Shown here: positions 4,475 through 51,569 of the stretch, in pieces
Layout: every line of letters begins with the position of its first letter
Position numbering within the stretch: position 1 is the first letter of the stretch
Translations under genes and position numbers: made by a program
NCBI GenBank assembly: GCA_963774265.1
Contig: CAVZDU010000001.1
Location: forward strand, 1,442,021-1,506,020
Reading direction: 5' to 3'
Length of the DNA: 64,000 nt
Source: an uncultured Chloroflexia bacterium
Lineage (GTDB): Bacteria > Chloroflexota > Anaerolineae > CG2-30-64-16
The notes under the pieces: model-generated
Database searches by the model: none
What the model saw: only the letters and a program-made list of their open reading frames with translations
What the model was told of the DNA's origin: nothing

Positions 4475-5560
4475 CTACAGGACTGCTTTGTGCTCACCGC
4501 ACTGCAGCGCAGCGCGCAGTGATGCAGTGCAGGTGTCGCGAAGAACCTGGTCCGCGGCGGTATACGGGTCGATTTCGCGTCGAGCGATCGCCACAGCAAG
4601 CCGCGTTACGAGTGTCGCGGCACTCATGCCGTCCGGCTGGCTTGCCATCAAGGCGGCCATAAGCCGCTCAGCCAGGATGGCGTTGAGCGCCGCGGTCGCG
4701 CGGATCACCTCCCGGCGACTGAGTTGGCCTGTCTCGCGGAGAAAACTGGCATGGCGCTCGATCCAATCCCGCAGCACATCCACGCCTTCGCTGCGAACTG
4801 CTACGGTCTTCGTGATCGGCGGGAGCCACGAGCCATCCGGCTGCGCGCCAGGTTCAGCATGGACGGCCGGATGCCTTGAACGGTCCCCACGGGATGGTTC
4901 CCCATGATGACTTGCCGCTAATGGCGCCAGTCCCTGCATCATTTGGAGCGCCATGATGGTGTGGTCAGCGCCCTCGCGATCGGCCTTATTCACAGCGAAC
5001 AGGTCCGCGATCTCGAGGATGCCCGCTTTGATGGCTTGCACCTCGTCGCCCAACCCTGGCGCCTCGACGACGATGGTCGTATGCGCAGCACTGGCGATGT
5101 CGATCTCTGCCTGCCCAACTCCAACCGTCTCGATCAGGATGCGGTCGAAGCCGGCTGCGTCAAGGACGGTCAATACATCCGAAGTCGCACGAGCAAGGCC
5201 CCCCAGGCTGCCGCGCGTCGCCATGCTGCGGATGAAGACGCCCGGATCACCTGACAGGTCGCGCATGCGGACACGGTCGCCCAAGAGCGCGCCGCCTGAA
5301 AAGGGGCTAGTCGGATCGACCGCCACAACGCCCACCGTGAGTCCCTGGGACCGATACGCGCGTGCAAGTGCATTGACCAGGGTGGACTTGCCTGTGCCCG
5401 GCGCACCGGTGATACCTATCAGGTGAGCGCGGCCGGTGTGCGGGTAAAGTGCAGCGAGGAGTTGCTGCGCATCGACAGCTTCATTCTCAACATGAGAGAT
5501 AGCCTTCGCCAGCGCACGCCGATTGCCGGCAAGAAGCGGTTCGACCAGATCCAGCCCCAT
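4475..5560 (-). CDS. meaB: Acyl-CoA mutase-associated GTPase chaperone
   Basis: GAPGTGKST, VDPTSPFSGGALLGDRVRM, ETVGVGQ, NKAD; next to mutase genes. Confidence 0.93.
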   Translation of the reverse strand: MGLDLVEPLLAGNRRALAKAISHVENEAVDAQQLLAALYPHTGRAHLIGITGAPGTGKSTLVNALARAYRSQGLTVGVVAVDPTSPFSGGALLGDRVRMRDLSGDPGVFIRSMATRGSLGGLARATSDVLTVLDAAGFDRILIETVGVGQAEIDIASAAHTTIVVEAPGLGDEVQAIKAGILEIADLFAVNKADREGADHTIMALQMMQGLAPLAASHHGEPSRGDRSRHPAVHAEPGAQPDGSWLPPITKTVAVRSEGVDVLRDWIERHASFLRETGQLSRREVIRATAALNAILAERLMAALMASQPDGMSAATLVTRLAVAIARREIDPYTAADQVLRDTCTASLRAALQCGEHKAVL

Positions 5561-10583: not shown

Positions 10584-11681
10584 TCACCCCGGCAGCGCCA
10601 GCAACGCGTCGCCCAGGCTCTTTCGGCCTAGACCGACCCGGAAGTGGCCAGGCATATCGAACATCTCTCCTGGCGCGACCATCACCCCACAAGTCCCGAG
10701 GCATTGCTGCGCATATTCCAGCGCGGTCACCGGCAGCCAGAGCCGTGGAAACGCTACCGGGCCTCCCATCGGCGGGAGCCATTCGAATGCCTCCGGACGC
10801 CCGATGAAGAACTGTCTGGCGAGATCAAGATTGCTCCGGATGATCTCGATATTGCGGTCCACGATCATACCTCGGGCGCGCAACGCGATGATACCCAGGA
10901 TTTCGCCCGGTGCGCTGTTGCAGATCGTCGTGTAGTCTTTGACTTGCCCTGCCCGCATAAGGAGGTCGCGATCCTGCGTTGCCAGCCAGCCGATGCGCAA
11001 GCCCGGCAGCCCGTACGACTTGGACAGACCCGAGAGCGTGACAGCTCGCTCGTAGCAGTCACACGCCGAGGGTAATCTGTCGCCCCCATCGTATTCGAGC
11101 CCACGGTACATCTCGTCCGAGAACAGGACCGCGCCCATCGCACTTACCGTGCCAACGATGGCATCCCATTCGGCGCGCGATGGCAAGTAGCCGGTAGGGT
11201 TGTGCGGGAAGTTGACCACGACCAGCCTGGTTCGAGGGGTGATCAGGCGAGACAGAGCTTCGACGTCGAGCTGCCAGGCCCCATCACGCGCCACCAAGGG
11301 CCACCGCACCACGGAGCAGCCGATCGCCGCTGCAACCTCAGCCAGCGACTGGTACGCAGGCCATGTGACGACGACCTCATCCCCGGGGCCCAGCAGACCA
11401 TTCATCAGGACAAAAATCCCCTCTTCGGGCGCAGCCACGAGCACATGCTGAGGGGTGATCTCCGTGTAGAGCCGGGCGATTTCACTCCGCAGCAGCGGAT
11501 GACCCTCTGATTCAGTGTAACCGAGCCATAAGTGTTCCCACAGCCCACGTGTTTGACCGTCGGACAGCGCCAGCAGGTCGGGAAGTGCCAGGCTTTCACA
11601 GTCCGACGCGCTGAGCAGATGCCGGACTTTGAATTCATACTCGGCGAAGTAGCGCTCCAGCTTGAACGGGGGTAGTCTCAT
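10584..11681 (-). CDS. PLP-dependent aminotransferase class I/II
   Basis: NFPHNPTG, SDEMY, SKSYGLPGLRIGW. Confidence 0.9.
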   Translation of the reverse strand: MRLPPFKLERYFAEYEFKVRHLLSASDCESLALPDLLALSDGQTRGLWEHLWLGYTESEGHPLLRSEIARLYTEITPQHVLVAAPEEGIFVLMNGLLGPGDEVVVTWPAYQSLAEVAAAIGCSVVRWPLVARDGAWQLDVEALSRLITPRTRLVVVNFPHNPTGYLPSRAEWDAIVGTVSAMGAVLFSDEMYRGLEYDGGDRLPSACDCYERAVTLSGLSKSYGLPGLRIGWLATQDRDLLMRAGQVKDYTTICNSAPGEILGIIALRARGMIVDRNIEIIRSNLDLARQFFIGRPEAFEWLPPMGGPVAFPRLWLPVTALEYAQQCLGTCGVMVAPGEMFDMPGHFRVGLGRKSLGDALLALPG

Positions 11682-11695
11682 TGCGCCTCAGAAAA

Positions 11696-11729
11696 TAGGA
11701 AAATGGAAAAAGGAAGAAGGAAAAGGAAG
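11696..11729 (+). repeat. Purine heptamer tandem repeat, same family as 10526
   Basis: TAGGAAA ATGGAAA AAGGAAG AAGGAAA AGGAAG. Confidence 0.65.
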
Positions 11730-11766
11730 CCCGCAAGTGTGGTGCGGAGACTCACCTGCGGGCTTC
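11726..11766 (-). terminator. Hairpin followed by pyrimidine tract on the minus strand, downstream of the DsbA-like gene
   Basis: GAAGCCCGCA...TGCGGGCTTC inverted repeat. Confidence 0.5.
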
Positions 11767-11791
11767 TCGGTCATCGGATGGCTGTCCGGCG

Positions 11792-13783
11792 TCAGGGCGC
11801 CAGCAGACCGTCGATCACCGGACTGAACTGGTCGTAGGGCAGCGCACCCGAGAGGGGTTTGGGATCGCCCACCGGCTGGCCGCCTACCATTTTGTACAGG
11901 AAGAACGCGGGCGTGCCGCGCACGCCCAGCGCCCCGCCGTCCTTCAGATCCTGATCGATGATCGCCTGCGTTTTCGCAGCGCTGACGCAAGCGTCATACT
12001 TGCCGCTGTCAACTCCGATGGCCAGCGCCTGCTTGCGGAACTGATCCGCGGCATCTTGCGCGTCCTGCCATGTGGCTTGATTAGCATAGAGCCAATCGTG
12101 CATATCCCAAAACAACTTCGCATCCTGTTCACCTGCGCAGATGGCGGCCTTCGCGGCCCCCGGCGCATTCGGATGAAAGTCAAGCGGGAAATTCCGGAAT
12201 ATCTGAACCGCCTTGCCGGTTTTCACGTACGCTTCATACAGAAGCGGCTCCGTCTGCATAGCATGACGGGCACAGTACGGTCACTGGAAGTCCGAGTAGT
12301 CCACCAACTTGACCGCTGCGTTCGGGTCACCTCGATAGAAGTTCCCCTCGGCGTCACGCCCCACAGGCAAACTCGCCAGCTCGGTCTTCGAGATGGACGG
12401 TGGCGGTGTGGGCGTGGGTGTCGGTGGCACCGAGATGTCCTTGATAGCTTGTTCGAACTGATCCAACGGCAGCGCGCCGGGGAAGCCCTTGGCATTCTCA
12501 ACCTGGCCCTGGGCGTCGAGTTTAAGCACCAGGAACGACGGTGCGGATGGCACACCGACTTCCTCCTGGGCAAAGGACAGCGCCTGCTGCACCTGGTTCT
12601 GAACCGTTTCATTGGTCAGGCAATCGCTGAAGGGCTTTTCGTCCAGCCCCAAGCTCTTGGCGAAGCCCTGCATCGCCGCATCGTCGCCTTCAGTCCACTC
12701 TGCCTGTTTCGTGTAGAGCAGTTCACGGAACTCCCAGAACTTGTCCTGCTGACCGGCGCACAACGCCGCAGCAGCGGCTCGGGGGGCCGTCACGGGGAAT
12801 AGCTGAACAGAGTAACGCACCTGTCCCTTGTCAAGGTAGTCCGACTTCAGTTTCGGTTCAACCGACTTCAGGTGCTCGGCTGATTCCGGGCTCTTGAAGT
12901 CTTCAAAAGCCAACACGACTACAGGCGCCGTGTCGGCGCCGAGGTAGTAACCGCCGCCAAAGTCGCGACCGGCTCGCTGAGGATCGGGCTGCCAGAACTC
13001 AACGCCTTGGGGCAGCGGGGTTGGGGTGGGCGGGGGCTTCTGCCCAGCCTTGGCCTTTTCGATTTTGTCCTTGAACTCATCGATTCCGACCGCGCCGCTG
13101 ATGAACCAATCGTTTACGAAGAACGCGGGTGTGCCTTGCACGCCCATCGCCATCCCATCCTGCACGTCCTTCTGGATTCGTGCGGTCGAGGCAGGGTCCT
13201 GGATGCACTTGTCGTAATCGGCCTCTTTGACGCCGAGCGCCAAAGCCTGCTTTTTGAACTGGTCTGCTCCATCGGTCGCCTCAGACCATCCATCCTGGTT
13301 CTTGAAAAGCCAATCGTGTAATCCCCAGAACAACTTCGGGTCCTGCTGACCGGCGCAGTAAGCCGCCAGCGAGGCAGGCATAGCATTCTGGTGAAAATCC
13401 AGCGGGAAGTGGCGGTAAACGTGTAGGACCTGACCGGTTGCTACGTACGCTTCATCCAGAAGCGGTCCCGTCTGTACAACATGACGGGCACAGTACGGTC
13501 ACTGAAAGTCCGACCATTCCACCAGCTTCACCGCGGCGTTCGGATTGCCCCGGTAGAAGTTGCCCTCCGCATCGACGCCGACCGGCACATCTGCCGCCAT
13601 AGCCGGGGCGGTCGTGGCGCCGGGCTGCTGCGTGGCTTGCTCGGCCGGCGCAGGTGTGCCAGCCTGAGGCGCCGGAGTGGGTACTGGCGCTGAGACACCG
13701 ACACAGCCGGCGACGAACAGCGCCAAAGCCAGCAGCAGCAGGCCGTACACAGCACGTCTGGTGCGAGACTGGGGTTCTCTCAT
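11792..13783 (-). CDS. Three-domain DsbA/thioredoxin-fold lipoprotein with two predicted selenocysteines (U95, U501), 663 aa
   Basis: ORFs 13499-13807, 12281-13381 and 11792-12259 share one frame, separated only by TGA codons in SDFQ-TGA-PYCARH; lipobox VAGC; RBS AGGGAGGA; GTPAFF cis-Pro loops. Confidence 0.9.
12250..12269 (-). promoter_or_regulatory. SECIS-like hairpin after second UGA (12281-12283)
   Basis: mRNA CCGUC-A-UGC-UAU-GCA-GACGG starting 11 nt after UGA. Confidence 0.75.
13467..13488 (-). promoter_or_regulatory. SECIS-like hairpin after first UGA (13499-13501)
   Basis: mRNA CCCGUC-A-UGU-UGU-ACA-GACGGG starting 10 nt after UGA. Confidence 0.75.
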
Positions 13784-13846
13784 GGAGTCCTCCCTCTGTA
13801 AGATCAAACCGCGGCGTGGGGCAGGCTGGCTGCCAGCCTACGCCGG

Positions 13847-15019
13847 TCAGTATACGAATTCTCGGATGTCATAACGCGACAGTTGTGGCCCGGCGGCGCC
13901 GGCTGACAAGCCCGCTCGCAAGGCCGCTTCCTGCCTGGCAATCTGATCGGATGAAAGCGGCGTAATGCCCGTCCTCGTGGCCAACTCTCCATATTCCGAG
14001 CCAGGCTGCTCAAAGAACGGCGAGAAATACACGAGATCGCCCTTACTCAACGGCATTGCATTGAGCGTTGCGATCGTGTGAGCGACATGGCCTTTGCCGT
14101 ACTGCGCTCCGCCGACGCCGGTCATGATGATGACGCTGACCGCTACGCCGGCGGCCTTTAGTGTGCGCACTGCGTCAACCGCATCGGCTGCTGTCCCCGG
14201 CTTGGCCAGGAACCGGAGCAGGGTGTCGTCCCCGCTCTCCATGCCGATGTACACCCGGCGCAGGCCTCGCCCGGCCAACTCTGCCCACTCGGTGACCGAC
14301 TTACGACCTACATCGAACGCATCGATGAAAGAGAAGATGCCCCCAGGGCGGCGCGGCCCGGCAGCATCGACCACGTCCAGCCACGCACGTACACGCGGCA
14401 TGGGCGCGACCAGGGCGTTTGCGTCGGCCAGGAAAAGCGACTTGCGCAGATGGAGGGCTGGCCCAAAAAACGCCTGCACCTCATGGACGTGCGCCTGCAG
14501 CTCTTCCGGACTTTTTATGCGGAACGGCCGATCCCGGTAGAAGTCGCAGAACGTACATCGATTGTACGAACAGCCTTCGGTTGCCTGGATCACCAGCGCC
14601 AGGTATTGGTCGGGCGGCAAGATGCTGACGGGAAGATAGATGCGATTGAACCACGCAACATCGGCTGCCAGGCGTTCCGCGGTCCACCCACGCAACACAT
14701 CGAGCCGGTGATCACCAAGGGTGTCCGCGACCTTTTGGGCTAACGCATGGGCCCGCACGGCAAAGGCATGGCTCTCGTCACCTGAGAGCCACTGTCGCCG
14801 GCGTCCGTCTGAACCGGGCCACTTGCGCAGCACGCGACCATCGAGCGCCCGCCGATAATTATAGCCATCCTCAAACGCGCCGATCAGCCTTCCCGCCAGA
14901 TCGAACGAGAAGCTCGGTTGCTCATCGTCGACAAGTATGTTGATCGCCACCGGTCGCACGCGCACCGCAATCGGTCCGACGCCTAGTAAGGTGCAATTGA
15001 GAATCTCAGTCGCCATCAT
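13847..15019 (-). CDS. Radical SAM protein
   Basis: GCSYNRCTFC cluster motif, FLADANAL, YIGMESGDD. Confidence 0.85.
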   Translation of the reverse strand: MMATEILNCTLLGVGPIAVRVRPVAINILVDDEQPSFSFDLAGRLIGAFEDGYNYRRALDGRVLRKWPGSDGRRRQWLSGDESHAFAVRAHALAQKVADTLGDHRLDVLRGWTAERLAADVAWFNRIYLPVSILPPDQYLALVIQATEGCSYNRCTFCDFYRDRPFRIKSPEELQAHVHEVQAFFGPALHLRKSLFLADANALVAPMPRVRAWLDVVDAAGPRRPGGIFSFIDAFDVGRKSVTEWAELAGRGLRRVYIGMESGDDTLLRFLAKPGTAADAVDAVRTLKAAGVAVSVIIMTGVGGAQYGKGHVAHTIATLNAMPLSKGDLVYFSPFFEQPGSEYGELATRTGITPLSSDQIARQEAALRAGLSAGAAGPQLSRYDIREFVY

Positions 15020-25475: not shown

Positions 25476-27060
25476 AGCCCGCAATCTGTCGCTGAGCATC
25501 GGCACGCTGCCGCTGATTCACGAGGTGAGCCTCGAAATCTTACCCGGCGAGGTGTTGGGCGTCGCGGGTCAGAGTGGGGCAGGGAAGTCGGTGCTGGCGA
25601 TGCTGCTTGCCGGTGTCCAGACACCCGATGCTGGTGAGCTTGTGTTTGCCGGACGACGGCTAGACTGGCCTTTCCGTGCTCGCAATCTTGGAATCGAAGT
25701 CGTTCACCAGCAACCGGAGATGGTTGAAGGGTTAGACATAACGGGCAACGTGTTCCTGGGAAACGAGTTGGGCTGGTCGCCGTGGGGCCGCTGGCTGCGC
25801 GTGCCCGACCGTCGACGCATGGACGTCGAAGCCGCGCGCATCCTTGCTGATCTGGGGATGCGGTATCATTCCCTGCGTGAACGGGTGTCTAACCTGACGG
25901 GCGAGCAGCGGCAACTTATCGCCATTGCACGCGCAATGACGCATCCCGCCCGGCTCATCATTATTGACGACCCAGGTCTTTTGTTGAGCTATCCCTACCA
26001 ACAGAAGTTGCTTTCGTTGATCCAGGCGTGGCGTAGCCAGGGCGCCGCCGTGCTCTACGGCAGCGACAATGTCGATCATCTCATGGCCGTCACCGATCGT
26101 ATCCTGGTCCTCCGCCACGGCCGCTGCATCGCACAGCGCGTCACCGAGGAGACGGATCGCGAGCAGATCTTGGCCGCCTCGGTTGGTGCAGCGGACCAGC
26201 AGGAGTTGACGCCGATCATCTGGGCCCTGGACAGCTATTATCGGGCCAGGGAGCAGGCGGAGAAGCTCAGCAGCCGGCAGAAGGTGTTGGAGCGCGATCT
26301 TGGCGCACCGGAGTTGAACCGGCAGATCATCGACCAGTTGGCCGATCAGGTTAACGTGCTTGACCGGGCGAACGCGGCCCTACAGGAGGCACAACGCCGG
26401 CTGTTATCCGAGCTCGAGCTGGAGCGCAAGCGACTCGCCCGCGAGATCCACGACCAGGTCATCCAGGATCTGCTGGCGGTGGGCTATCAGCTGGAAGAGC
26501 TCGAGTCGGGCCCTGCCGTGACGCCCAGGCTCGAGGAAGAGCTGCAGAGCGTGCGGGCTGATGTGCGCAACGCGGTGAGCGACCTGCGCAACATCTGCGG
26601 CGAGTTGCGCCCGCCGACCATCGACAGCCTGGGGCTAGGACCGGCGCTGCAGTCCTTTGTGCACGAGTGGAGCAAGCGTACCGGCATTGCAGTCAGCATG
26701 GTGCTCGACCCTAATCTGGGACGCCTGCCGGAGTCGACTGAGTTGTCGATCTTCCGCATCGTGCAGGAAGGGCTCAACAACGTGCGCAAGCACGCCGCCG
26801 CGCAGCAGGTCGACATTCAGCTCAAGCATACCTCTCCTCGACGCCTCCTGCTCACCATCGCCGACGACGGCCGGGGCCTGGCTCCGGACTTTGATCCTTC
26901 GCAGCTGTCGGCCGAAGGACACTATGGGCTATCCAGTATCAGCGAGCGTGTGGCTCTCCTGGGCGGGCGTTGGAAGCTCCAGAACCGGCCCGAGGGGGGC
27001 GCACTCATCCAGGCCGAAATCCCACATCCGCGCATTGAGCCAACCTCCCCGGATAGCTGA
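25459..27060 (+). CDS. Degenerate ABC nucleotide-binding domain fused to HisKA_3/HATPase histidine kinase
   Basis: Walker A GQSGAGKS, LTGEQ, IIIDDPG; H-box RLAREIHDQ, EGLNNVRKH, DDGRG, GHYGL; no TM segments. Start uncertain: ACG at 25459 vs GTG at 25525. Confidence 0.88.
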   Translation, partial: TEPLLKARNLSLSIGTLPLIHEVSLEILPGEVLGVAGQSGAGKSVLAMLLAGVQTPDAGELVFAGRRLDWPFRARNLGIEVVHQQPEMVEGLDITGNVFLGNELGWSPWGRWLRVPDRRRMDVEAARILADLGMRYHSLRERVSNLTGEQRQLIAIARAMTHPARLIIIDDPGLLLSYPYQQKLLSLIQAWRSQGAAVLYGSDNVDHLMAVTDRILVLRHGRCIAQRVTEETDREQILAASVGAADQQELTPIIWALDSYYRAREQAEKLSSRQKVLERDLGAPELNRQIIDQLADQVNVLDRANAALQEAQRRLLSELELERKRLAREIHDQVIQDLLAVGYQLEELESGPAVTPRLEEELQSVRADVRNAVSDLRNICGELRPPTIDSLGLGPALQSFVHEWSKRTGIAVSMVLDPNLGRLPESTELSIFRIVQEGLNNVRKHAAAQQVDIQLKHTSPRRLLLTIADDGRGLAPDFDPSQLSAEGHYGLSSISERVALLGGRWKLQNRPEGGALIQAEIPHPRIEPTSPDS

Positions 27061-27105
27061 GCTCACTGGACGGCGAGCGCGGCGTGCAGGCGCGGCGCCT
27101 GAGAT

Positions 27106-27192
27106 AGGGGTTCCCCCCATTTCGGTTGAGGCAAGTCCGACACAGCCAATCCAATTTTTGGACTGCACGCGTTTTGGTAATCGTGTTATAAT
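27106..27192 (+). promoter_or_regulatory. Promoter of first sugar ABC operon with upstream palindrome
   Basis: AGGGG-TTCC-CCCCA (27106-27119); TGTTATAAT (27184-27192). Confidence 0.7.
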
Positions 27193-27280
27193 ACACTCTG
27201 TGGGTCATCCGCCACCGGATGTTGGCGGACAACTCTGTGGCCCACGCGCAAACCCCATATATTCAATAGGAGGATTGTCG

Positions 27281-28414
27281 ATGAAGTCCAAGTTCATGTT
27301 GATCGTCTCGCTGATTTTGATCGTGACCACGCTGTTTGGCTGCGGTGGTGCCGCGACGCCGGCGGCCGCCCCTGCCGCGCAGCAACCGGCCGCCGGTGGC
27401 GGAGGAGCAACCAAAGGGTCGGTCGGCGTCATCCTGCCGACCAAGGATGAGCCGCGCTGGCTGCAAGACCAGGCCGTCTTCCTCAAGGCCGGCTGGACCC
27501 CCCTGTTCAGCCAGGGTGACTCGGCCAAGGAAAAGGCCAACGTCGAGGCCTTGATCAGCCAGGGCATCAAAGTCCTGATCATTTGCCCGCAGGATGCTGT
27601 CGCCGCAGCCGCGGCCGCATCGGCTGCCAAGGCCGCCGGCATCAAGGTCATTTCCTATGACCGCCTGATCCGCGACACCGATGCCGTCGATTACTATGTG
27701 ACGTTCGACAGCATGGCGGTGGGTGCGGCCTGGAGCGAGTACCTGATCAAGCAGGCCGGCGACACCAAGGGCAATCCGCTCTATCTGTATGCGGGTGCAT
27801 CCACCGACAACAACGCCTTCATCTTCTTCGAAGGCGCCTGGGAGAAGATCCAGCCCAAGATCGCCGATGGCACCTTCGTCATCAAGAACTCCAGCGAGGC
27901 CGTCGCTCTCCAGGCCAAGCCCACGCTGACCCGCGATGAAGAGGCCAAGATCATCGGTCAGGTCACCACCAACTGGGACTTCAATACCGCTAAGGGCCTC
28001 ACCGAGGCTAACCTGACCAAGGCTACCGCTGCCGACAAGGGCACCGTCTACATCCTCGGCCCCAACGATGGCACCTCTCGCGCCATCGCTGACGCCTTCG
28101 CCTCGGACAAGGAGGTCAAGAAGTACTTCGTCACCGGTCAGGACGCCGAGAAGGCCTCCGTCCAGTACATCATCGACGGCAAGCAGTCGATGACCGTCTT
28201 CAAGGACGTCCGCACCCTGGCGGCCGACGCCGTCGCCGCGGCCAATGCCTTCCTCGCCGGTAAGACCCCGGAGAAGACAACGACCTACAACAACGGTAAG
28301 ATCGATGTTCCGGCGAAGCCGTCTGCGATCGTCACCGTCACCAAGGACAACGTCAAGGCAGCCTTGATCGACTCCGGCTATTACCAGGCCGGCGACTTCA
28401 CGGGCTTGCAGTAA
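27281..28414 (+). CDS. ChvE/XylF-like monosaccharide-binding lipoprotein
   Basis: AGGAGG RBS, lipobox LFGC, LPTKDEPRW, SYDRLI, DNNA, GQDA, TVFKD. Confidence 0.92.
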   Translation: MKSKFMLIVSLILIVTTLFGCGGAATPAAAPAAQQPAAGGGGATKGSVGVILPTKDEPRWLQDQAVFLKAGWTPLFSQGDSAKEKANVEALISQGIKVLIICPQDAVAAAAAASAAKAAGIKVISYDRLIRDTDAVDYYVTFDSMAVGAAWSEYLIKQAGDTKGNPLYLYAGASTDNNAFIFFEGAWEKIQPKIADGTFVIKNSSEAVALQAKPTLTRDEEAKIIGQVTTNWDFNTAKGLTEANLTKATAADKGTVYILGPNDGTSRAIADAFASDKEVKKYFVTGQDAEKASVQYIIDGKQSMTVFKDVRTLAADAVAAANAFLAGKTPEKTTTYNNGKIDVPAKPSAIVTVTKDNVKAALIDSGYYQAGDFTGLQ

Positions 28415-28423
28415 CAGATCGTC

Positions 28424-28541
28424 CTTCCCCCTCTCCCGCAACCCTGAGCGAAGCGAAGGGCCGGGAGAGGGGGAGGCAGCCCTACCGAGGCAGGGTTATT
28501 GCGAACGCACTCTGCGGCTGATTTGCGCAAGTCAGCCGCAG
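28424..28541 (+). repeat. Two intergenic hairpins (REP-like or mRNA-stabilising) after the binding-protein gene
   Basis: CCCCCTCTCCCG...CGGGAGAGGGGG (28424-28476); CTGCGGCTGA...TCAGCCGCAG (28512-28541). Confidence 0.7.
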
Positions 28542-28595
28542 TAGAACAGGGACAGAACTGGACCCTCATGTTTCACTTCGTCAGGAGTTAGCGCC

Positions 28596-43207: not shown

Positions 43208-44169
43208 ATGCAAATTACACTGGCCACGCGTATGCTCTTGCGGCGTTCCCTGATGCTTCAAGCGACGGGGGCCGCCCTTGCGGTAGGCGGCGCCGCCTAC
43301 TACTTCACCCACCCTCAGACCGCGTTGCATCCGAGCTGCCGGAAGACTTGAAACAGGACGCTCAAAGCGTCACGCTCACCGCCACTGATGGCGCACGGTT
43401 GCACGGCACGTGGATTCCGGGCCGTGGGGTGAACGGCTTGCCGTTCGATCGCACCATCGTCCATCACCACGGCTACAATAGTTGTGGCGGCGTGCTGCTT
43501 GCCAGGCGTGCCTTTTTCCAGCGGACTGCCGTCCCTCTGCCGTGGACCGAGCAGCAGGAGTCGCTGTGTGCCTGGCCCGTGGTATACGAAGGCTTGCAAA
43601 GGGGTTACAACTTTCTGCTGATCGATGCACGCGCACACGGCGAGTCCGGCGGCGCATGGGACCCTACGGGCGTGCAGGCAGTGTCCGACGCGGCCAAGTG
43701 GGCGTGCTGGCTGCGCGAGACGCATACCCAACTCTGGGCGGGGCTGTGGGGCAATTCCTTTGGAGCAGCGGTCGGGCTCGGGCTCGCCTTGCGGCCATCC
43801 GGCGGCGGGTACGATGCCATGGTGCTGGATAGCCCGGTAGTCACCTCCGAGGGCGTCTATTCTGGTGTGGTGGCCGCGCCGTTGTATGCCGCCATCCAGC
43901 CGGTGCTTCAGCGGGTGGGCAACCACACACTTTATCCATCACTCCAGGCGCATCGGCCCTGGATGCCCATCCTGTTGATTCATGGCGTCGAGGACGGGCA
44001 TGTGCCCGTCTGGCAGAGCGAGCTTGCCTACGAATCGATCCAGGATCCAGATGATCCGGATCGGGCCGGCCTATGGCTGGTGCCCGGCGCCAAGCACTTG
44101 CAGTCGTTGGAGGTTGCGCCGGAAGAATACGTCAAGCGCACCCTGGATTGGTTCGACAAGTGGATGTAG
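43208..44169 (+). CDS. Alpha/beta hydrolase with N-terminal anchor (frameshift near 43333)
   Basis: HHGY, DARAHGES, GNSFG nucleophile elbow, HGVEDGHV, GAKH; hydrophobic N-terminus lies in the adjacent frame. Confidence 0.8.
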
Positions 44170-44182
44170 TTGGAGGCATTTT

Positions 44183-44875
44183 TTGAATAAGTCCCTCGTC
44201 GGCATCTTGCGCTGGCTTATTGCGTTAGCCATGCCGGTCTTTATCGTCTTGATGTGGCTGCGGATCGTTTGGAACCCGTGGTTTGTGCAGTGGGAATACG
44301 GCAAGCCGGACTTCCCGCCCGATACTTACGGATTTGCGAACGAGCAGAGGATCGGGTACGTCCTGCAGTGGGTGGATTACTACAACAGCAGCACATCGCC
44401 CGAGGCCGGCGCGCAGGCCTTCGCGGCGCTGCGCATGCCGGGTACGGACCAGCCGCTTTACTCCCCCTACGAAGTCAGCCACATGGTGGACGTGCGGCTC
44501 CTGACTGACACACTCTGGCGGCTCCTGCCCGTGGCAGGCGTCATCGTCGTCGGTGGGTTGCTCCTGCTGCTCATCCGCGGGCGCACGCGGCGCGACGGCT
44601 ACGCGGCGCTCTACGTAGGCGGGCTGATCAGCACGGTGCTGCTTCTGGCGGTCATCTTGTTTGTTCTGCTGTCCTGGCGGACCTTCTTCGTTACCTTGCA
44701 CGATGTCTTCTTCCCGCCCGGCACCTGGCAGTTTGACTGGACCAGCACGCTGATCCGTATCTTCCCGGACCGCTTCTGGTTCGATGCTGGCGTGTTGCTG
44801 GTGGGTGGTGCGTTGGTTGTCAGCGTGATGGTGACATTGGCGGGCTATCTATTGGGCCGGCGCACAAGGGTCTAA
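44183..44875 (+). CDS. DUF1461/TIGR01906 membrane protein (Lit-like lipoprotein transacylase family)
   Basis: Four TM segments; EVSHMVDV and FVTLHDVFF histidines; WQFD...LIRIFP; GGAGG RBS before TTG. Confidence 0.75.
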   Translation: MNKSLVGILRWLIALAMPVFIVLMWLRIVWNPWFVQWEYGKPDFPPDTYGFANEQRIGYVLQWVDYYNSSTSPEAGAQAFAALRMPGTDQPLYSPYEVSHMVDVRLLTDTLWRLLPVAGVIVVGGLLLLLIRGRTRRDGYAALYVGGLISTVLLLAVILFVLLSWRTFFVTLHDVFFPPGTWQFDWTSTLIRIFPDRFWFDAGVLLVGGALVVSVMVTLAGYLLGRRTRV

Positions 44876-44883
44876 GGAGATTC

Positions 44884-46445
44884 ATGGCACATCAAGCGAA
44901 GATTACTCGCCTGCGTGATCTCAAGTATTCTTCGGGCCTGGGTGGGGGTGAAGAGCGCATTAAGGCGCAGCACGCCAAGGGTAAGTTGACGGCCCGCGAG
45001 CGAGTTGATCTGCTGCTCGACAAAGGTTCCTTCACTGAGCTTGATCGCTTCGTCGTTCAGCGCGGGGGGAGACGAGCGATTTCGGAAAAGCGGGCCAGCC
45101 GATGGGTGACGGCGTGGTGACCGGCTACGGCACCATCGACCGCCGGCTGGTCTACGTCTATTCGCAGGATTTCACGGTGATTCGGCGGCTCGCTGGGTGA
45201 GGCCCATGCAGAAAAGATCTGCAAGGTCATGGACCTGGCGATGAAGAACGGCGCGCCGGTGATCGGCCTGAACGATTCCGGCGGCGCGCGCATCCAGGAG
45301 GGCGTCTTCTCGCCTGGGCGGGTATGCCGACATCTTTCTGCGCAACACGCTGGCGTCGGGCGTCGTCCCGCAGATCAGCATGATCATGGGACCCTCTGCC
45401 GGCGGTGCGGTCTACTCGCCGGCCATCACCGACTTCATCGTCATGGTCAAGGACACCAGCTATATGTTCGTGACCGGGCCGGATGTGGTGAAGACGGTGA
45501 CACACGAGCAGGTGTCAGTTCGAGGAGTTGGGCGGCGCGCTGACCCACGCGTCCACTCAGCGGCGTGGCTCATTTCGCGGCCGATGGCGAGGAGGACGCC
45601 GTCTTCCTGGTCCAGAAGCTGCTGAGCTACCTGCCCTCCAACAACATGGAGGACCCGCCCATCATGCGCTCGGACGACGACCCTCTGCGCACCGATGAGG
45701 CGTTGGAGAGTGTGATCCCCGAGGAGCCGAACAAGCCCTACGACATGCACGAGGTCATCAGCAAGGTCGTGGACAACGGCGAGTTCCTGGAGATCATGCA
45801 GAACTGGGCGGGCAACATCCTCATCGGCTACGCGCGGCTCGACGGTCGCACGGTGGGCATCGTCGCGAACCAGCCAGCCGTGCTGGCCGGCGTGCTCGAC
45901 ATCAACGCCAGCATCAAGGCGGCGCGCTTCGTCCGTTTCTGCGACTGCGTTCAACATCCCTATCGTCACGTTCGTGGACGTGCCCGGCTTCTTGCCCGGC
46001 ACTGTGCAGGAACACGGCGGGATCATCCGCCACGGCGCCAAGCTGATCTACGCCTATGCCGAGGCGACCGTGCCGAAGCTGACCGTGGTCACGCGCAAGG
46101 CCTACGGCGGCGCCTATTGCGTTATGATCGTCCAAGCACATGCGCGGCGACATCAACCTGGCCTGGCCCATCGGCCGAGATCGCGGTCATGGGACCGGAT
46201 GGCGCGGTGAATATCGTCTTCCGCGCGAAATCGCCTCCTCGTCCGACCCCGAGGAAACGCGGGCGCAACTGGTGGCCGAGTATCGGGAGAAGTTCGCCAA
46301 TCCCTACGTGGCTGCATCGCGCGGCTATCTCGATGCAGTGATCGAGCCGAACGAGACTCGCCCGCGGCTGATCAACGCGCTGGAGATGCTGCAGAACAAG
46401 CGGGACACGAACCCGCCCAAGAAGCACGGGAATATTCCGTTGTGA
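44884..46445 (+). CDS. pccB: Acyl-CoA (propionyl-CoA) carboxylase carboxyltransferase subunit, many frameshifts
   Basis: [49 protein letters not shown] across fragments. Confidence 0.85.
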
Positions 46446-46452
46446 TTTGCCG

Positions 46453-48008
46453 ATGTTCAAGAAGATTCTGATCGCCAATCGCGGCGAAATCGCCGTCCGC
46501 GTCATCCGGGCGTGCCAGGAGCGCGGGCTCACGACCGTGGCCGTCTATTCCGATGCCGATCGGGCCGCGCTGCACGTGCGCTATCGCCGACGAAGCGTAC
46601 CGCATCGGCCCGCCGCCGGCGCGCGAGAGCTACCTGAACATCCCGGCGATCATCGCGGCGGCGCAGACGGTCGGGCGCGGAGGCCATCCATCCCGGCTAC
46701 GGCTTCCTCTCGGAGAACGAGGAGTTCGCGCAGGCCGTGCTGGACGCCGGCCTCGCGTGGGTTGGCCCGTCGCCGGCGGCCATCCGGGCGATGGGCGACA
46801 AGGTGGCAAGGCGCGCCGCACGATGATCGCGGCCGGCGTGCCGGTGGTGCCGGGCAGCGATCCCGCGGGATGTGACGCGTCCACCGGGCTGAGCGACGGC
46901 GAGGCTGTCCGCGGCCGCGGAGGAGATCGGCTACCCGGTGCTGGTCAAGGCGTCGGCCGGCGGGCGGCGGCAAGGGGATGCGCGTGGTCAGCGAGCCGGC
47001 CGAGCTGCTCGCGGCCTTGGCGGCCGCCCGCCGCGAGGCGCTCAGAGTGCGTTCGGCGACGACACCGTCTACCTCGAGAAACTGATCACCCGCGCACGGC
47101 ACGTCGAAATCCAGGTGCTGGCCGACAGCTACGGCAACTGCGTCCACCTGGGCGAGCGCGAATGCTCGATCCAGCGCCGGCACCAGAAGCTGATCGAGGA
47201 GTCGCCGTCGGTGGCCGTGACGCCCGAGCTGCGCGCGCGAGATGGGCGCGGTCGCGGTGCGCGCCGCCCAGGCGGTCGGCTACAGCAACGCCGGCACCGT
47301 CGAGTTCCTCCTGGACCGGTCCGGCAACTTCTACTTCCTCGAGATGAACACCCGGCTTCAGGTCGAGCACCCGGTCACCGAGCTGGTGACCGGCATCGAC
47401 ATCGTCAAGGAGCAGTTCGCCATCGCCGTCGGGACGCAAGCTGCGCTGGACGCAGGATGAGATCACGTTCAAGGGCCATGCCATCGAATGTCGCATCAGC
47501 GCCGAAAATCCGTATAATAACTTTCTGCCGGAGGCCGGGCGGATCACCAGCCTGATCGAGCCGACCGGGCCGGGCGTGCGGCTGGAGAGCGGCATCTATG
47601 CCGGCTGGGAAGTCAGCCTGTATCTACGATCCGCTGCTGGCGAAGCTGAGTCGTCTGGGGCGAGACCCGGCCCGAGGCGATCCTGCGGATGCGCCGCGCG
47701 CTGGACGAGTATCGCATCGGCGGCATCCACACGACGATTCCGTTCCACCAGCAGGTGATGGACAGCATCGGCTTCCAGTGGGGCCAGTTCGACACGCAGT
47801 TCGTCGATGGGCCGGACGGCTTCCGCATGTCCGCTGCGCCCAGCCGTGACCTGGCGCAGGTGGCCGCGGTGGCCGCGGCGCTGGTCGAGCACGAACAGGA
47901 GCCAGCAGGCCGTCATCCTGGGCACGCCGTGCGACGGGGAGGGCGTCCGTGTGTCGCCGTGGAAGCAGATCGCGGCGCCGGCCAGCGGTCCGGCACAGGA
48001 CGACATGA
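46453..48008 (+). CDS. accC: Biotin carboxylase subunit, many frameshifts
   Basis: [49 protein letters not shown] across fragments; end approximate. Confidence 0.85.
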
Positions 48009-48514
48009 AGTATTTCGCCACGGTCAACGACCAGACTTACGAAATCGACATCGACCACCACGGCCGGGTGACGGTGGATGGCATGGAGCTGGCCGCCGAC
48101 ATGCAGGCTGGTGGGCGGAACCAACCTCTACTCGCTGCTGCTGAATAACATCTCTCACGAGGTCGTGCTCGATCCCGACAACGACAAACAGGGCACCTAT
48201 GGCGTGATGGACGGGCGGTCTGCGCTACGTGGTGAAGGTGCAGGACGAGCGTTCGCGGCGGCTCGCGCTGGTCGATCGCAGCCTTGCGACCGCCAGACGG
48301 CGAGTTGTCGATCAAGGCGCCCATCCCGGGACTGGTGGTCAAGGTGGCCGTTGAGCCCGGTCAGGAGGTGGCCGAGGGCGATACGTTGATCATTCTGGAA
48401 GCCATGAAGATGGAGAATGAGCTGCGCGCACCCCGTGCAGGGGTCGTGCTCGAAGTCAAAGTTGATCCCGGCGCCCAGGTCGCGTTGGGGCAGGCAATGG
48501 TCTCGTTGAGATAG
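48005..48514 (+). CDS. Biotin carboxyl carrier protein, frameshifted
   Basis: MKYFATVND start; APIPG and EAMKMENE biotinylation motif. Confidence 0.85.
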
Positions 48515-48531
48515 CATGGGGAGAGTCACCT

Positions 48532-49179
48532 ATGAAGCATACCGCAAATACACTTGAGATCAACCACAGCGACGTCCCGATCCGGTTATTCGAATCGGAC
48601 CTCCTGGAATTCTTCACACATATCACCCCACTCGCCATCACAATTATCTGGGCGCCGGTGATCATCTTTTTCTTGGCGCGCTCAATTGTGAAATTGGGTC
48701 CCGGCCAAAGTTGGGCCCCTATCCCGCTCGGATTGCTCATCGGCCTGTTCCTGTGGACGTTCGCCGAGTATACTCTCCACCGCTTCGTCTTTCATTTTGA
48801 CCCGAAGTCGGAGCGCGTGGCCAAGATCTGGTTTATGTTTCACGGCGTCCACCATGCTCAGCCACAACTCAAAACGCGGCTCGTCATGCCGCCTGCGTTG
48901 AGCATTCCCCTGGCGATTCTGTTCTACTTCATCTTTGACCTGGTGTTTGGTCGCTTGCTTGGCGGACCGCAGTGGGTTGATTCGCTCTTCGCCGGGTTTA
49001 TGATTGGCTACCTCGTGTACGATCTGATTCACTATGCGACGCATCATTGGCCCATACGCGGGGGCTATCTGAAGTATCTCAAGCGCTATCATATGATGCA
49101 TCATTTCAAGACCCCCAGCGCCCGCTATGGCGTGAGCTCACCCGTATGGGATATGGTGTTTGGGACAAAGCCGCAGTAG
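48532..49179 (+). CDS. Fatty acid hydroxylase/sterol desaturase family
   Basis: His boxes EYTLHRFVFH, HGVHH, HYATHH, HMMHH. Confidence 0.9.
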   Translation: MKHTANTLEINHSDVPIRLFESDLLEFFTHITPLAITIIWAPVIIFFLARSIVKLGPGQSWAPIPLGLLIGLFLWTFAEYTLHRFVFHFDPKSERVAKIWFMFHGVHHAQPQLKTRLVMPPALSIPLAILFYFIFDLVFGRLLGGPQWVDSLFAGFMIGYLVYDLIHYATHHWPIRGGYLKYLKRYHMMHHFKTPSARYGVSSPVWDMVFGTKPQ

Positions 49180-49193
49180 CCTGACTTGCATCA

Positions 49194-50705
49194 CGTGTCA
49201 AGCCAAATGATAATGTTACCGAGAGGTAGTCGTTGGGCCAAGTGATAATGTTACCCGGCCAGCTCCTTTCGTTAGGGTTTCCATCAGGATCGTCGTAGCA
49301 GGGGCTGTGGGTATGTGGGCAACTCGCAGCGCAGCGGAGAGTTGTCCACATACCCACAGCCCACGGTTAGGCGGCCAGCCGGAGAGCTGACTGATAGTCA
49401 GCCGGTAGTCCGGTCGGCTGTGCGAGAATCGTGGCCGCCGCGCGCACATCGACCGGACCCGCCGCTAACGGCAGTGCGGCGATCGCGTCGATGAGTTGGT
49501 AAATCTCCTGGCGTAGCCGGCGCGGATTCGTCTGTTGCCGCAGTTGCGCCAGCTGCGCTTGCCGTTCTGGGGCGATCCTCTGGGCGGCACAGACCCGCTC
49601 GAAGGGCGTTTGGGCCACATCATAGCGCCGCGTGAGATGGGGGCGCTGACCTTCCGCCGCCACGCGCATCTTGGCGACGATGTGTAGGACCGGCTGGAAG
49701 AAGTTGTAGTACAGCCACATTTTGTCGTAGAGCTGATTCACGAGCGCCACCTGGGCTAAGCTGTCGAGCCGGTCGAAGCCCAGGTAGGCTCGCACCAACG
49801 AGTGGTTCTTCTGCTCGACAAAGCGGTTGTCGTTTTTCTGCCAGGGTCGGCTGCGCGAGAGATGCAGGCCCGGCACCTGGTCCTTGAAGAAGCGCCAGAC
49901 ATGGTGGTTGAGGAACTCCGACCCGTTGTCAGGATGCAATTCCAGCAAGGTGAAGGGCAGGCGCGTCAGGATGCGCCGGAAGCCGGCCTCCATGATCAGC
50001 CCGCTGCGGCCCAGCACGGCGACGCGTTCGCTCCAGCCGGTGGCCACGTCGACCATCTGCAAGGTGTGCAGGTAGTCGCCGGAGGCACTCGGCCCGCAGT
50101 GATGGACCAGGTCGACCTCGCAGTGCCCCGGCTCGCCGATATCCCAGGGGATGCGCTGGGCCGGGATCTGGCGCAGGATTTGCAGGGCGCGTTCTGGGCC
50201 GCGCCGGGGCAGCCGGTGTTCGTCTTGGCGCATGCGTTTGAGGATGCGTTTGACCGTGCGCACGCTGATCTGGCCTAGTTGCGCCAGCACTGGCTCTGAA
50301 ACGACCAGCTCACCATGCGTCATCAGCAGCCGCGCCGTCGGCAGCAAGCTGGGCGTCAGTCGTTCCGCACAAATGTAATCCAGGCTCTCGGCAATGACGC
50401 GGATCGCATCGTCTACCGCGTGGCTGTAGGTGCGCCCACGTTGGCGGTGCCGTGCGCGGCGCACCGGCTCCGCTTTCATGAGCCGAATCAGGCTCTTGCG
50501 GTGCAACTCGGTCACGTGGACCATCTCATCCAGCAACCGGCTGCGCTCGCTACGGTGCGCCTGCACATAACGCAGACGCATGCGCAGCAGATACTTGCGG
50601 CGTTCGTTGATTGTCATTTTGTCTTCAGCAGGCATAGGCCCTCGGTAACATTTTCATTTGGCCTAACTATACCTGCTTCGGTAACATTTTAGCTGGCCTA
50701 ACGCG
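49194..50705 (-). mobile_element. Complete insertion sequence (rve-type DDE transposase; IS481/IS1202-like, family uncertain)
   Basis: Imperfect terminal IRs (CGTGTCAAGCCAAATGATAATGTTACC vs revcomp CGCGTTAGGCCAGCTAAAATGTTACC), each end with two repeat copies; CATCA direct repeat at 49189-49193 and 50706-50710. Confidence 0.9.
49367..50635 (-). CDS. DDE transposase (integrase core)
   Basis: EVDLVHH, HPDNGSEF, NDNRFVEQKN catalytic D-D-E motifs. Confidence 0.92.
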   Translation of the reverse strand: MPAEDKMTINERRKYLLRMRLRYVQAHRSERSRLLDEMVHVTELHRKSLIRLMKAEPVRRARHRQRGRTYSHAVDDAIRVIAESLDYICAERLTPSLLPTARLLMTHGELVVSEPVLAQLGQISVRTVKRILKRMRQDEHRLPRRGPERALQILRQIPAQRIPWDIGEPGHCEVDLVHHCGPSASGDYLHTLQMVDVATGWSERVAVLGRSGLIMEAGFRRILTRLPFTLLELHPDNGSEFLNHHVWRFFKDQVPGLHLSRSRPWQKNDNRFVEQKNHSLVRAYLGFDRLDSLAQVALVNQLYDKMWLYYNFFQPVLHIVAKMRVAAEGQRPHLTRRYDVAQTPFERVCAAQRIAPERQAQLAQLRQQTNPRRLRQEIYQLIDAIAALPLAAGPVDVRAAATILAQPTGLPADYQSALRLAA

Positions 50706-50710
50706 CATCA

Positions 50711-50739
50711 TTGACGCCAGCCTACAAATCATTTATCCT
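50711..50739 (+). promoter_or_regulatory. Promoter immediately adjacent to the IS target site
   Basis: TTGACG-N17-TATCCT. Confidence 0.55.
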
Positions 50740-50840
50740 TGCCACGATGACCGGCGCGTTGGGAACCATCCCTTCAAGGGACTCGGCGCCGGTCGTTTAA
50801 TTGGGTCCCATCCCCTTCGGGGGACGCGCAGGAGTGAACC

Positions 50841-51556
50841 GTGAACATACTAGGTGACCTACCATTCCAAATCGACGTTCCCGCTCTGCTTACAGACATG
50901 CGCGTGCGGCCCGGCAGCCGTCACGAGAGCGAGATTCTGACGCTGGTCGACGAGGCCCAGGGGATCGCCCGACCCAAGGCGGGCTTCAAGCTAGTATTCA
51001 TTGAGTCCAAAGGCATCGACACTATCGCGGCCGAGGGCGTCCAGTTCAAGAGCCGCGTGCTGCGGGTTCATCTGGACACGCTGGAGCGCTTTTTCCCTTA
51101 CGTGTGCACCTCGGGTGTGGAGCTCCAGGCATGGGCCGACAGCTATCTCAACGACCTGTTGCTTGGCTTCTATGCCGATGCGATCAACCAGGTCGTATTG
51201 AAGAGCGCGTTTGGCGGCTTCATGGCCCACCTGGCCACCGCCTACGGCCTGGCCAACCCTTCTGTCATGAACCCAGGTTCGCTGGGCGATTGGCCGATTC
51301 AGGAGCAGTGGCCTTTATTCAGACTCCTCGGCGATGTGGAAGGCGATCTGGGCGTGCACCTGAAGGAGTCTTGCCTCATGGTCCCGACCAAATCGATCTC
51401 CGGCATCCTGTTCCCCACAGAAGAGACTTTCGCAAGTTGCCAGCTGTGCCCGCGGAGAACTGCCCGAACCGTCGCGCACCGTATGACCCTGGATTGTTCG
51501 ACCGCAAGTTCAAGGCGCCGGTCGTTCAGGCAGAGACCGATCTGCCATTATGCTAA
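50841..51556 (+). CDS. Stand-alone B12-dependent methionine synthase activation-domain-like protein (frameshift near 51452)
   Basis: [25 protein letters not shown], then [15 protein letters not shown] completed in another frame ending at 51556. Confidence 0.75.
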
Positions 51557-51569
51557 TGTGGGAGAACGC

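Follow-up and report, generated by a model that had tools for sequence, protein, structure and literature searches.

Two in-frame UGA codons, each followed by a two-hairpin RNA element, probably encode selenocysteine in a three-domain DsbA-like lipoprotein gene of Anaerolineae

Is a row of three short open reading frames (ORFs) on the minus strand of an uncultured Chloroflexia bacterium a set of separate genes, or one gene interrupted by codons that are not read as stops? The row lies in a 64,000-nt stretch of contig CAVZDU010000001.1 (assembly GCA_963774265.1), which was analysed at its full length and is called the window here. Positions 13783..11792 (−) formed a single frame of 663 codons plus a stop, running from ATG 13783 to the stop TGA at 11794–11792. 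As a preliminary description of the window had claimed, the only in-frame interruptions were TGA at 13501–13499 (codon 95) and TGA at 12283–12281 (codon 501), both in the context SDFQ-TGA-PYCARH. Its statement that 39 and 7 stop-free codons follow these TGAs was likewise correct; they extend to ATG 13381 and ATG 12259, the next ones eligible for a gene caller. Standard ORF calling splits the gene into pieces of 102, 366 and 155 aa. The read-through product has 663 aa and three DsbA-like domains, with one TGA at the active site of domain 1 and the other at that of domain 3. Very probably, judging from comparative sequence evidence, the three apparent short genes are one selenoprotein gene in which both UGAs are translated as selenocysteine (Sec), each with its own two-hairpin element.

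The product falls into a known family whose members are already curated as selenoproteins. It matched NCBIfam NF041057 ('Rcas_1661 family thioredoxin-like (seleno)lipoprotein') in three stretches with E 2.3e-132 and 440 bits (cutoff 190), and Pfam returned three stretches each for PF13462 Thioredoxin_4 (E 7.3e-84) and PF01323 DSBA (E 7.5e-32); the frame and these matches define the gene at 11792..13783 (−) with its two internal UGA-Sec codons. The NF041057 model has 247 positions and describes a single domain. Since the window protein has three tandem domains and two Sec, it is a multi-domain variant of the family, not its described form. In the available part of a 2026 review (PMC13188914), NF041057 is listed as 'DsbG-like protein' with a UxxC motif and 1 Sec, citing Kryukov and Gladyshev 2004; of the 119 prokaryotic selenoprotein families given there, the majority have one Sec each and 'a small subset' has 2–3. 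The corresponding part of Zhang et al. 2006 (PMC1794560) lists DsbA-like and DsbG-like selenoproteins and gave Chloroflexi a count of three at the time. Selenium-containing lipoproteins that are exported have been described for the SAO system in the available part of a preprint (bioRxiv 10.1101/2022.07.06.499078). No account of a tandem three-domain member with two Sec was found in the literature covered, which did not extend to supplements or to Kryukov and Gladyshev 2004. New here is this tandem form, together with the placement of a putative signal hairpin 37 nt past the UGA behind a spacer hairpin.

Many members of the family stand in protein databases as pieces. Among 8000 scored candidates of a large protein collection, 1823 relatives were found at E ≤ 0.001, and 17 of them were aligned (alignment A2). 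Three full-length, three-domain proteins (P0005, P0007 and P0008) carry CP[YF]C at both sites. Five others (P0004, P0010, P0017, P0023 and P0029) stop exactly at ...SDFQ ahead of the domain-3 site, two (P0003 and P0013) start just past the domain-1 site, and P0012, P0014 and P0015 show both the start and the end breaks. P0006 is the 366-aa middle piece, which stands in the public set as a protein of its own. Gene callers split the family systematically. An SDFQ-like C-terminal end, one codon before the active site, was present in 64 of the 120 best database homologues, and 35 of those 64 also start just past a site. None of the 120 carried a selenoprotein name. The earlier remark that UxxC DsbA-like selenoproteins are known and commonly mis-annotated as split genes is thus supported both by NF041057 and by these truncated entries. 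As a consequence of the systematic splitting, an abundant surface redox enzyme is under-represented in the proteomes of Anaerolineae metagenome-assembled genomes (MAGs), where non-functional fragments take its place. The host bacteria are common in anaerobic digesters and sediments.

At the DNA level, a scan of GTDB species representatives gave 68 loci, of which L001–L052 belong to Anaerolineae/Chloroflexota MAGs. The window's own genome was not one of these loci, the closest being L001 (80%). Twenty-one loci span all three sites. Their domain-1 codon was TGA in 9, TGC or TGT in 11 and masked by N in 1 (L001); their domain-3 codon was TGA in 18 and TGC or TGT in 3. Both codons were TGA in 8 of the 21 (L006, L011, L012, L015, L018, L019, L023 and L024) and both encoded Cys in 2 (L003 and L010). 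The middle-domain motif read [S/N]xx[S/A/T] in 15 loci and CxxC in 6, and was never TGA. Cys/TGA pairs, which had been proposed as a check, were therefore present at both positions in A2 and in the 21 three-domain loci, and the assignment of UGA codon 95 (13499..13501, −) and UGA codon 501 (12281..12283, −) to Sec is based on this pairing. Judging from these loci, the two-Sec three-domain variant is widespread among Anaerolineae, and it probably recurs in many of the database fragments too. As a variant of a curated selenoprotein family, it does not constitute a new type of system. The multi-Sec architecture had been called unusual, which holds against the literature but not within the clade. 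The run of N in L001 (~5500–5530) lies exactly over the domain-1 redox codon, and the residues that follow it (PYCARHVIQTGPLLDEA) are of the Sec-site type.

For a quick domain tree, 61 rows of domains 1 and 3 were used (39 Sec, 22 Cys); the site itself and the columns encoded by the downstream element were taken out, and rows near contig ends, containing N or shorter than 120 aa were dropped. On this tree, Sec and Cys must have replaced each other at least 11 times, and well-supported branches force 6 of these changes. Since some branches are long (L052, L019_10181 and L007_11393), the tree was used for the minimum number of changes only, not for their direction or order.

Each of the two TGAs is followed by an element resembling a selenocysteine insertion sequence (SECIS), identified by fold, covariation and motif match and consisting of two hairpins, H1 and H2. 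Element 1 (13448..13489, −) comprises H1 at 13489–13466 and H2 at 13464–13448 with the loop UGGAU; element 2 (12230..12271, −) comprises H1 at 12271–12248 and H2 at 12246–12230 with the loop UGUAU. One compensatory difference, U-A to C-G, distinguishes element 2 from element 1. The 62 nt starting at each TGA fold with −22.5 kcal/mol (z −2.42; site 13499) and −23.2 kcal/mol (z −3.12; site 12281). The stretch past the true stop TGA folds poorly (−11.7 kcal/mol, z +0.94) and has no SECIS-like fold.

The 68 loci and the window together contain 113 redox-motif sites (47 TGA and 66 Cys codons), and all 47 TGA sites lie within L001–L052 or the window. These loci and the window account for 88 of the 113 sites, of which 66 passed a filter for the domain-1/3 type (41 Sec, 25 Cys); the 22 filtered out, 6 of them with TGA, belong to the middle-domain CxxC type or to other subtypes. 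The 41 main-type Sec sites could be aligned without gaps (alignment A3, 38 distinct rows). With columns counted from the T of the TGA, H1 spans columns 13–36 (GCCCGUC...GACGGGC with an inner 3-bp stem) and H2 columns 38–54 (CGCUUC-UG(G/U)AU-GAAGCG). Over the 41 sites, 90.3% of the cells in the pair count were paired. Both-sided changes occurred at 10 of the 16 pairs (17 such cells), a result matched by none of 500 shuffles, and registers slid by 1–3 columns gave at most 2. For instance, L009 and L026 have GCUCGUC/GACGAGC in H1, and L029 and L031 have C-G in place of U-A. In L025, H1 is kept in the same register despite differing encoded residues (GCGYFAQQVA). In L011 and L012, H2 has become CAUCUC/GAGAUG and the protein PSLYEM, with all six pairs retained.

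The intact element is tied to TGA. H2 was fully paired (6/6) at 41/41 Sec sites versus 0/25 Cys sites (Fisher p ~1e-18), the H1 core (5/5) at 39/41 versus 2/25 (Fisher p ~2e-13), and both hairpins were intact at none of the 25 comparable Cys sites. At both TGAs of the window, H1 scored 5/5 and H2 6/6. Several Cys sites carry a decaying element, such as L010 5938 (H1 5 of 5, H2 5 of 6), L003 10088 (4 and 5) and L004 11312 (3 and 5), and sites of this kind seem to be recent switches. The SECIS visibly dictates protein sequence: H2 encodes PLLDEA, PLLYEA, PLLEEA or PSLYEM at all 41 Sec sites, and PLL(D/Y)EA is kept at Sec sites only, save for PLLYEA at 1 of the 25 Cys sites. The Leu codon of the H2 loop is CUG in 41/41, and the codon after it ends in U in 40/41, against a genome GC content at third codon positions of ~0.7. 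In the 64-kb window, the 17-nt H2 motif occurred twice, each time 37 nt past one of the two TGAs, with 0.06 matches expected and 2 reached in 0/100 shuffles.

A scan of 787,558 bases on both strands for a YG(G/U)R(U/A) pentaloop on a 6-bp stem, 9–45 nt past an open in-frame TGA, returned 47 matches. Forty-five were in the family, at spacings of 37 nt (40), 25 nt (3) and 14 nt (2), and 2 were elsewhere; since the pattern was derived from the same sites, only the low background counts as evidence. Each of the six TGA sites of other subtypes has its own hairpin. L018 10175, L025 10145 and L028 10058 have another type of first domain, ISDFQ-U-P[FY]CG.[WFY]ATGAGRQI, with TGA and the hairpin CUGGCG-CGGGU-CGCCAG beginning 25 nt past it. 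In L019 and L032, the main gene is followed directly by another DsbA-like gene (11883–12764 and 11090–11842, respectively), which contains a TGA in YSDFL-U-GAC with its own hairpin 14 nt past the TGA, and the two copies of this hairpin differ by one compensatory change, A-U to G-C.

The read-through product has the anatomy of an exported lipoprotein. Its N-terminus, MREPQSRTRRAVYGLLLLALALFVAG-C27, ends in the lipobox L-F-V-A-G-C27, and residues 1–27 (13703..13783, −; Cys27 codon 13705–13703) were assigned as a lipoprotein signal peptide by inspection, from the positive n-region, the hydrophobic core and the lipobox VAG-C27, in agreement with the homologues and the family name. The lipobox Cys is conserved among the N-terminally complete homologues of A2. 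A Tat (twin-arginine translocation) signal, considered on account of T-R-R-A-V-Y, was dropped, as the twin arginine is not conserved in the A2 homologues. A tether rich in Pro, Ala and Thr connects C27 to domain 1. This domain (~residues 66–247; 13043..13588, −), delimited from the best Pfam stretch (73–242), the structural model and invariant columns, contains U95-P-Y-C98, the cis-Pro loop G-T218-P219 and C143/C193. It is followed by Pro/Thr linker 1, the KPPPTPTPLP region (residues 248–258; 13010..13042, −), in which PxPTPTPLP is invariant in alignment A4. In domain 2 (~residues 262–447; 12443..13000, −), recognised by its similarity to domain 1 and by the model, EDFKSPES replaces CxxC, leaving the redox-dead S298-P-E-S301 (12892–12881) and the pair C342/C388. 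Pro/Thr linker 2, VPPTPTPTPPPS (~residues 449–460; 12404..12439, −), leads to domain 3 (~residues 470–663; 11795..12376, −), which was delimited by similarity to domain 1, the model and invariant columns and has U501-P-Y-C504, the cis-Pro T624-P625 and C549/C599. Sequence identity to domain 1 is 57% for domain 3 and 31% for domain 2.

AlphaFold2, run on a 20-row alignment, gave a mean predicted local distance difference test (pLDDT) score of 84.4. The three domains scored ~85–97 (domain 1 ~90–97, domain 2 ~85–96), while residues 1–63 and both linkers were disordered (pLDDT <50 at 252–255 and 454–457). A thioredoxin fold with helical insertion and cis-Pro loop was confirmed by the DSSP pattern and by Foldseek (TM up to 0.86). 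U95, S298 and U501 each sit N-terminal to a long helix, helices 96–114 and 502–520 starting right after U95 and U501; the helix N-terminus is the canonical place of the nucleophilic residue in thioredoxin-fold enzymes. The top Foldseek matches were DsbA-type, with a target TM of 0.81–0.86 for Wolbachia alpha-DsbA1 (3f4r) and BdbD (3eu3) and 0.62 for C. diphtheriae DsbA (4pwo); sequence matches in the PDB included 7uno, 3eu3 and 4pwp. Taken by structure and sequence, the PDB relatives are Wolbachia alpha-DsbA1, C. diphtheriae DsbA/TsdA/MdbA, B. subtilis BdbD and ScsC proteins. T218-P219, T624-P625 and the Cys pairs C143/C193, C342/C388 and C549/C599 are invariant in A4. The second Cys pair of each domain is likely a structural disulfide; alpha-DsbA1 and M. 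tuberculosis DsbA likewise carry a second Cys pair. The preliminary description had noted a redox-inactive middle domain, an N-terminal lipobox and PTPTP linkers, all of which were recovered. Its overall picture of a 663-aa exported lipoprotein with two Sec sites flanking a dead domain agrees with the Cys/TGA pairs, the covarying element found at TGA only, NF041057 and the three-domain fold.

Several results weigh against this picture. No selA, selB, selD or tRNA-Sec was found in the 64-kb window by NCBIfam on 58 ORFs, Pfam on 21 more and a tRNA search, which returned no tRNA at all; in L001–L052 there was no tRNA-Sec either, the 12 tRNAs there being all Leu or Met. Nor did the 58 + 21 ORFs scanned in the window include a DsbB, VKOR, CcdA or DsbD partner gene. 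All relatives are uncultured MAGs. The predicted template modelling score (pTM) of the three-domain model was 0.40, so no fixed arrangement between the domains is predicted. Rfam yielded no SECIS family, either at the gathering score on the window or at E up to 10 on the gene. The H2 loop sits 43–47 nt past the UGA, outside the 16–37 nt that the published search model for bacterial SECIS reportedly allows for the loop. The pentaloop hairpin may be the contact for SelB, with H1 as a spacer that folds away the extra distance. Eight weak Rfam matches (E 0.74–9.9, to microRNA, small nucleolar RNA and small RNA models) were rejected as chance.

Could the two TGAs be true stops, leaving three separate short genes or a pseudogene with two nonsense mutations that yields fragments only? 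Standard calling does produce ORFs of 102, 366 and 155 aa, the middle piece has its counterpart in P0006, and the Sec machinery was not seen in the window. Yet the breaks hit the catalytic codon in both domains, and the same codon is affected at 47 TGA sites across L001–L052 and the window; homologues carry Cys there, and the covarying hairpin pair is kept after TGA only. Pieces 2 and 3 would moreover lack a signal peptide, and piece 1 (94 aa) would lack any fold. Neither nonsense mutation nor sequencing error can explain why dozens of independent assemblies share a TGA at the corresponding codon, accompanied by a structure that is retained nowhere else, and we consider the reading as separate genes or a pseudogene highly improbable. 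The frame would also be open if TGA were leaky or reassigned genome-wide (tables 4 or 25) and read as Trp, Gly or another residue instead of Sec. However, of the window's 61 greedy ORF calls, 31 end in TGA (in two cases at the Sec codons themselves), and TGA is also this gene's own stop; aligned homologues show Cys at both positions, never Trp or Gly. Genome-wide reassignment is thereby excluded in practice. A specific structure after the TGA sites would be needless under it as well, and the GC content of the window is 61.7%, whereas the TGA-reassigned lineages known to us are AT-rich. We regard any such decoding as scarcely credible. In a crude window-wide screen for in-frame TGA (53 candidates with coding-like flanks), no other selenoprotein gene was recognised; a redox-motif context was seen only at 12281, and 13499 was missed by the 40-codon threshold, as 39 codons follow it.

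Two further alternatives accept Sec but differ in what is made from the gene. It might be a Sec gene by descent in an organism that has since lost Sec decoding, and so a relic with truncated products only, which would fit the frequent Sec-to-Cys switches in the family (the at least 11 on the 61-row tree, 6 of them forced). Against this, both elements of the window are fully intact, whereas apparently recent Cys switches already show element decay, and the three pieces of the frame contain no further stops or frameshifts; a relic is very unlikely. Alternatively, shorter isoforms could be used physiologically beside the full-length protein, namely a 94-aa lipopeptide or a 500-aa two-domain form that would retain one active and one dead domain, with selenium supply setting the balance. 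In E. coli, recoding at a UGA-SECIS site has an efficiency of 30–40%, according to the available part of PMC4513850; at two serial sites, many truncated chains should be left, and at that rate per site only about a tenth to a sixth of ribosomes would reach the end of the gene. Unless truncated chains are tolerated, recoding would have to work better here. No feature of the sequence, however, points to a function of the truncated forms, and relatives freely swap either Sec for Cys, which abolishes such isoforms. Their physiological use therefore appears rather unlikely. With two UGA-Sec codons, each with an intragenic SECIS, the gene is a natural test of bacterial recoding efficiency.

If the gene is decoded as a selenoprotein gene, SelB carrying Sec-tRNA(Sec) would bind the two-hairpin element and insert Sec at each UGA, and the terminal UGA, having no element, would end translation. 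The 663-aa pre-lipoprotein would then be exported, lipidated at Cys27 and held on the outer face of the cytoplasmic membrane by its disordered Pro/Ala/Thr tether. Exported proteins could undergo thiol-disulfide exchange at domains 1 and 3, where the selenolate would act as the attacking nucleophile and a selenenylsulfide (Se-S) intermediate would form. The dead middle domain may serve as a spacer or substrate-binding module, in a layout like the active-inactive-active one of eukaryotic protein disulfide isomerase (PDI). A selenoenzyme of this kind, lipid-anchored outside the cytoplasm and with a dead domain between two active ones, is a candidate PDI-like catalyst. The dipeptide in XPYC is that of E. 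coli DsbG, and the review calls the family 'DsbG-like'; thioredoxin-fold proteins into which Sec has been introduced artificially are more reducing and faster. Both points would favour an isomerase- or reductase-like role of the window protein; its nearest solved relatives, however, are oxidases, and no partner gene is in the window. More tentatively, the SECIS of Anaerolineae may depart from the textbook design, with SelB recognising a YG(G/U)R(U/A) pentaloop on a 6-bp stem that can start 14, 25 or 37 nt past the UGA, in steps of about a helical turn and with H1 as spacer. Such a compact, efficient design would allow two Sec codons per mRNA and a surface-anchored, U-dead-U, PDI-like selenium catalyst of disulfide exchange, perhaps one that works without a DsbB/VKOR-type partner; we put this forward as a possibility that is more doubtful than not.

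A lipoprotein-modifying enzyme may be encoded elsewhere in the window: ORF 43982–44875 matched Lit (lipoprotein intramolecular transacylase; PF07314, 73 bits), with TIGR01906 at 72.9 against a cutoff of 74.8. This Lit-family ORF hints at lyso-form lipoprotein modification in the organism.

Compared with known systems, the window protein shares with the NF041057 or 'DsbG-like' family the UxxC/CxxC site, the lipoprotein signal peptide and the interchange of Sec and Cys. It differs in having three fused domains, two Sec and one domain without redox residues, where that family has one domain and one Sec. The DsbA-type enzymes (BdbD 3eu3; C. diphtheriae 4pwo, 7unn and 5c00; alpha-DsbA1 3f4r) have the same thioredoxin fold with helical insertion, active site at a helix N-terminus and cis-Pro loop; alpha-DsbA1 also shares the second conserved Cys pair, which in the window protein lies in the helical part (C143/C193 and equivalents). 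They are, however, Cys proteins of one domain whose DsbB/VKOR partner is known or presumed, whereas the window protein has Sec for the nucleophilic Cys, tandem domains and no partner gene in the window. In the a-b-b'-a' arrangement of eukaryotic PDI, two redox-active thioredoxin-fold domains flank inactive ones that retain the fold, with flexible connections. The likeness to PDI is one of layout only; the window protein has the DsbA helical insert, a lipid anchor and selenium, and no specific homology to PDI. No eukaryotic PDI was among the matches listed (31 structural rows to rank 48; 20 sequences), which were of DsbA, ScsC and BdbD types, save for a UGGT chain (5mu1, rank 47) and some with vague names.

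As in the SECIS of E. coli fdhF, the element is a stem-loop structure within the coding sequence that starts ~11–13 nt 3' of the UGA and has an apical loop containing G and U. Unlike the bacterial and Rfam SECIS, it consists of two hairpins, with the conserved pentaloop hairpin beginning 37 nt past the UGA behind a 24-nt hairpin; in the sister subtypes, a pentaloop hairpin of this kind begins at 25 or 14 nt. Other multi-Sec proteins also have more than one UGA-Sec per polypeptide (PMC13188914, available part). In the Prx-like and FmdB entries there, both Sec stand in one UxxU motif, while the window protein has a UxxC and a SECIS for each duplicated domain.

At the borders of the gene, a Shine-Dalgarno-like sequence (GAGGGAGGA; 13788..13796, −) lies 4 nt (CTCC) ahead of ATG 13783, and L001 starts at the equivalent Met. 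A terminator-like hairpin with a T-rich tail (11730..11748, −) follows ~45 nt past the true stop; with 4 such sites in the region against 2.9 expected, it is weak evidence by itself. The upstream neighbour, 63 nt away on the same strand, is a radical S-adenosylmethionine (SAM) gene (13847–15019), and the neighbour on the other side is a gene with a pyridoxal phosphate-dependent aminotransferase fold (10584–11681; GntC/VioD-like). The radical-SAM gene is adjacent in 21 related loci and the aminotransferase gene in 18, and the conserved gene order reaches ABC-F, coaE, dnaJ, prmA, rsmE and trxB. Since relatives share this order, it looks like inherited chromosomal synteny and not a functional cluster. 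The radical-SAM gene has an unusual cluster motif, CSYNRCTFC (Cx5Cx2C).

Other parts of the window look rearranged. The sugar ATP-binding cassette (ABC) transporter region at 25525–38882 looks scrambled: an 853-aa ORF (28596–31157) has a ChvE-like binding-protein segment between the two halves of one GguA-like ATPase, half an ABC ATPase is joined to a histidine kinase in a 511-aa ORF, xylG lies in two parts (35199–35789 and 36294–36806), and xylB ends at about half length (276 aa). Diverged repeats of ~70% identity connect 27766 with 29540 and 30861 with 36504. Within the xylF-like sugar-binding protein gene, 33033–34646 is a near-perfect tandem duplication (period 1047–1048 nt, 97–100% identity) that results in a 618-aa ORF (33265–35121) with two XylF stretches, and could be real or an assembly artefact. 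At 45229–53084, fragments of mmdA (methylmalonyl-CoA decarboxylase alpha) and accC (biotin carboxylase) adjoin an IS481-like transposase ORF (49367–50635), and a second methylmalonyl-CoA mutase copy (50841–53084) has an N-terminal extension of ~250 aa.

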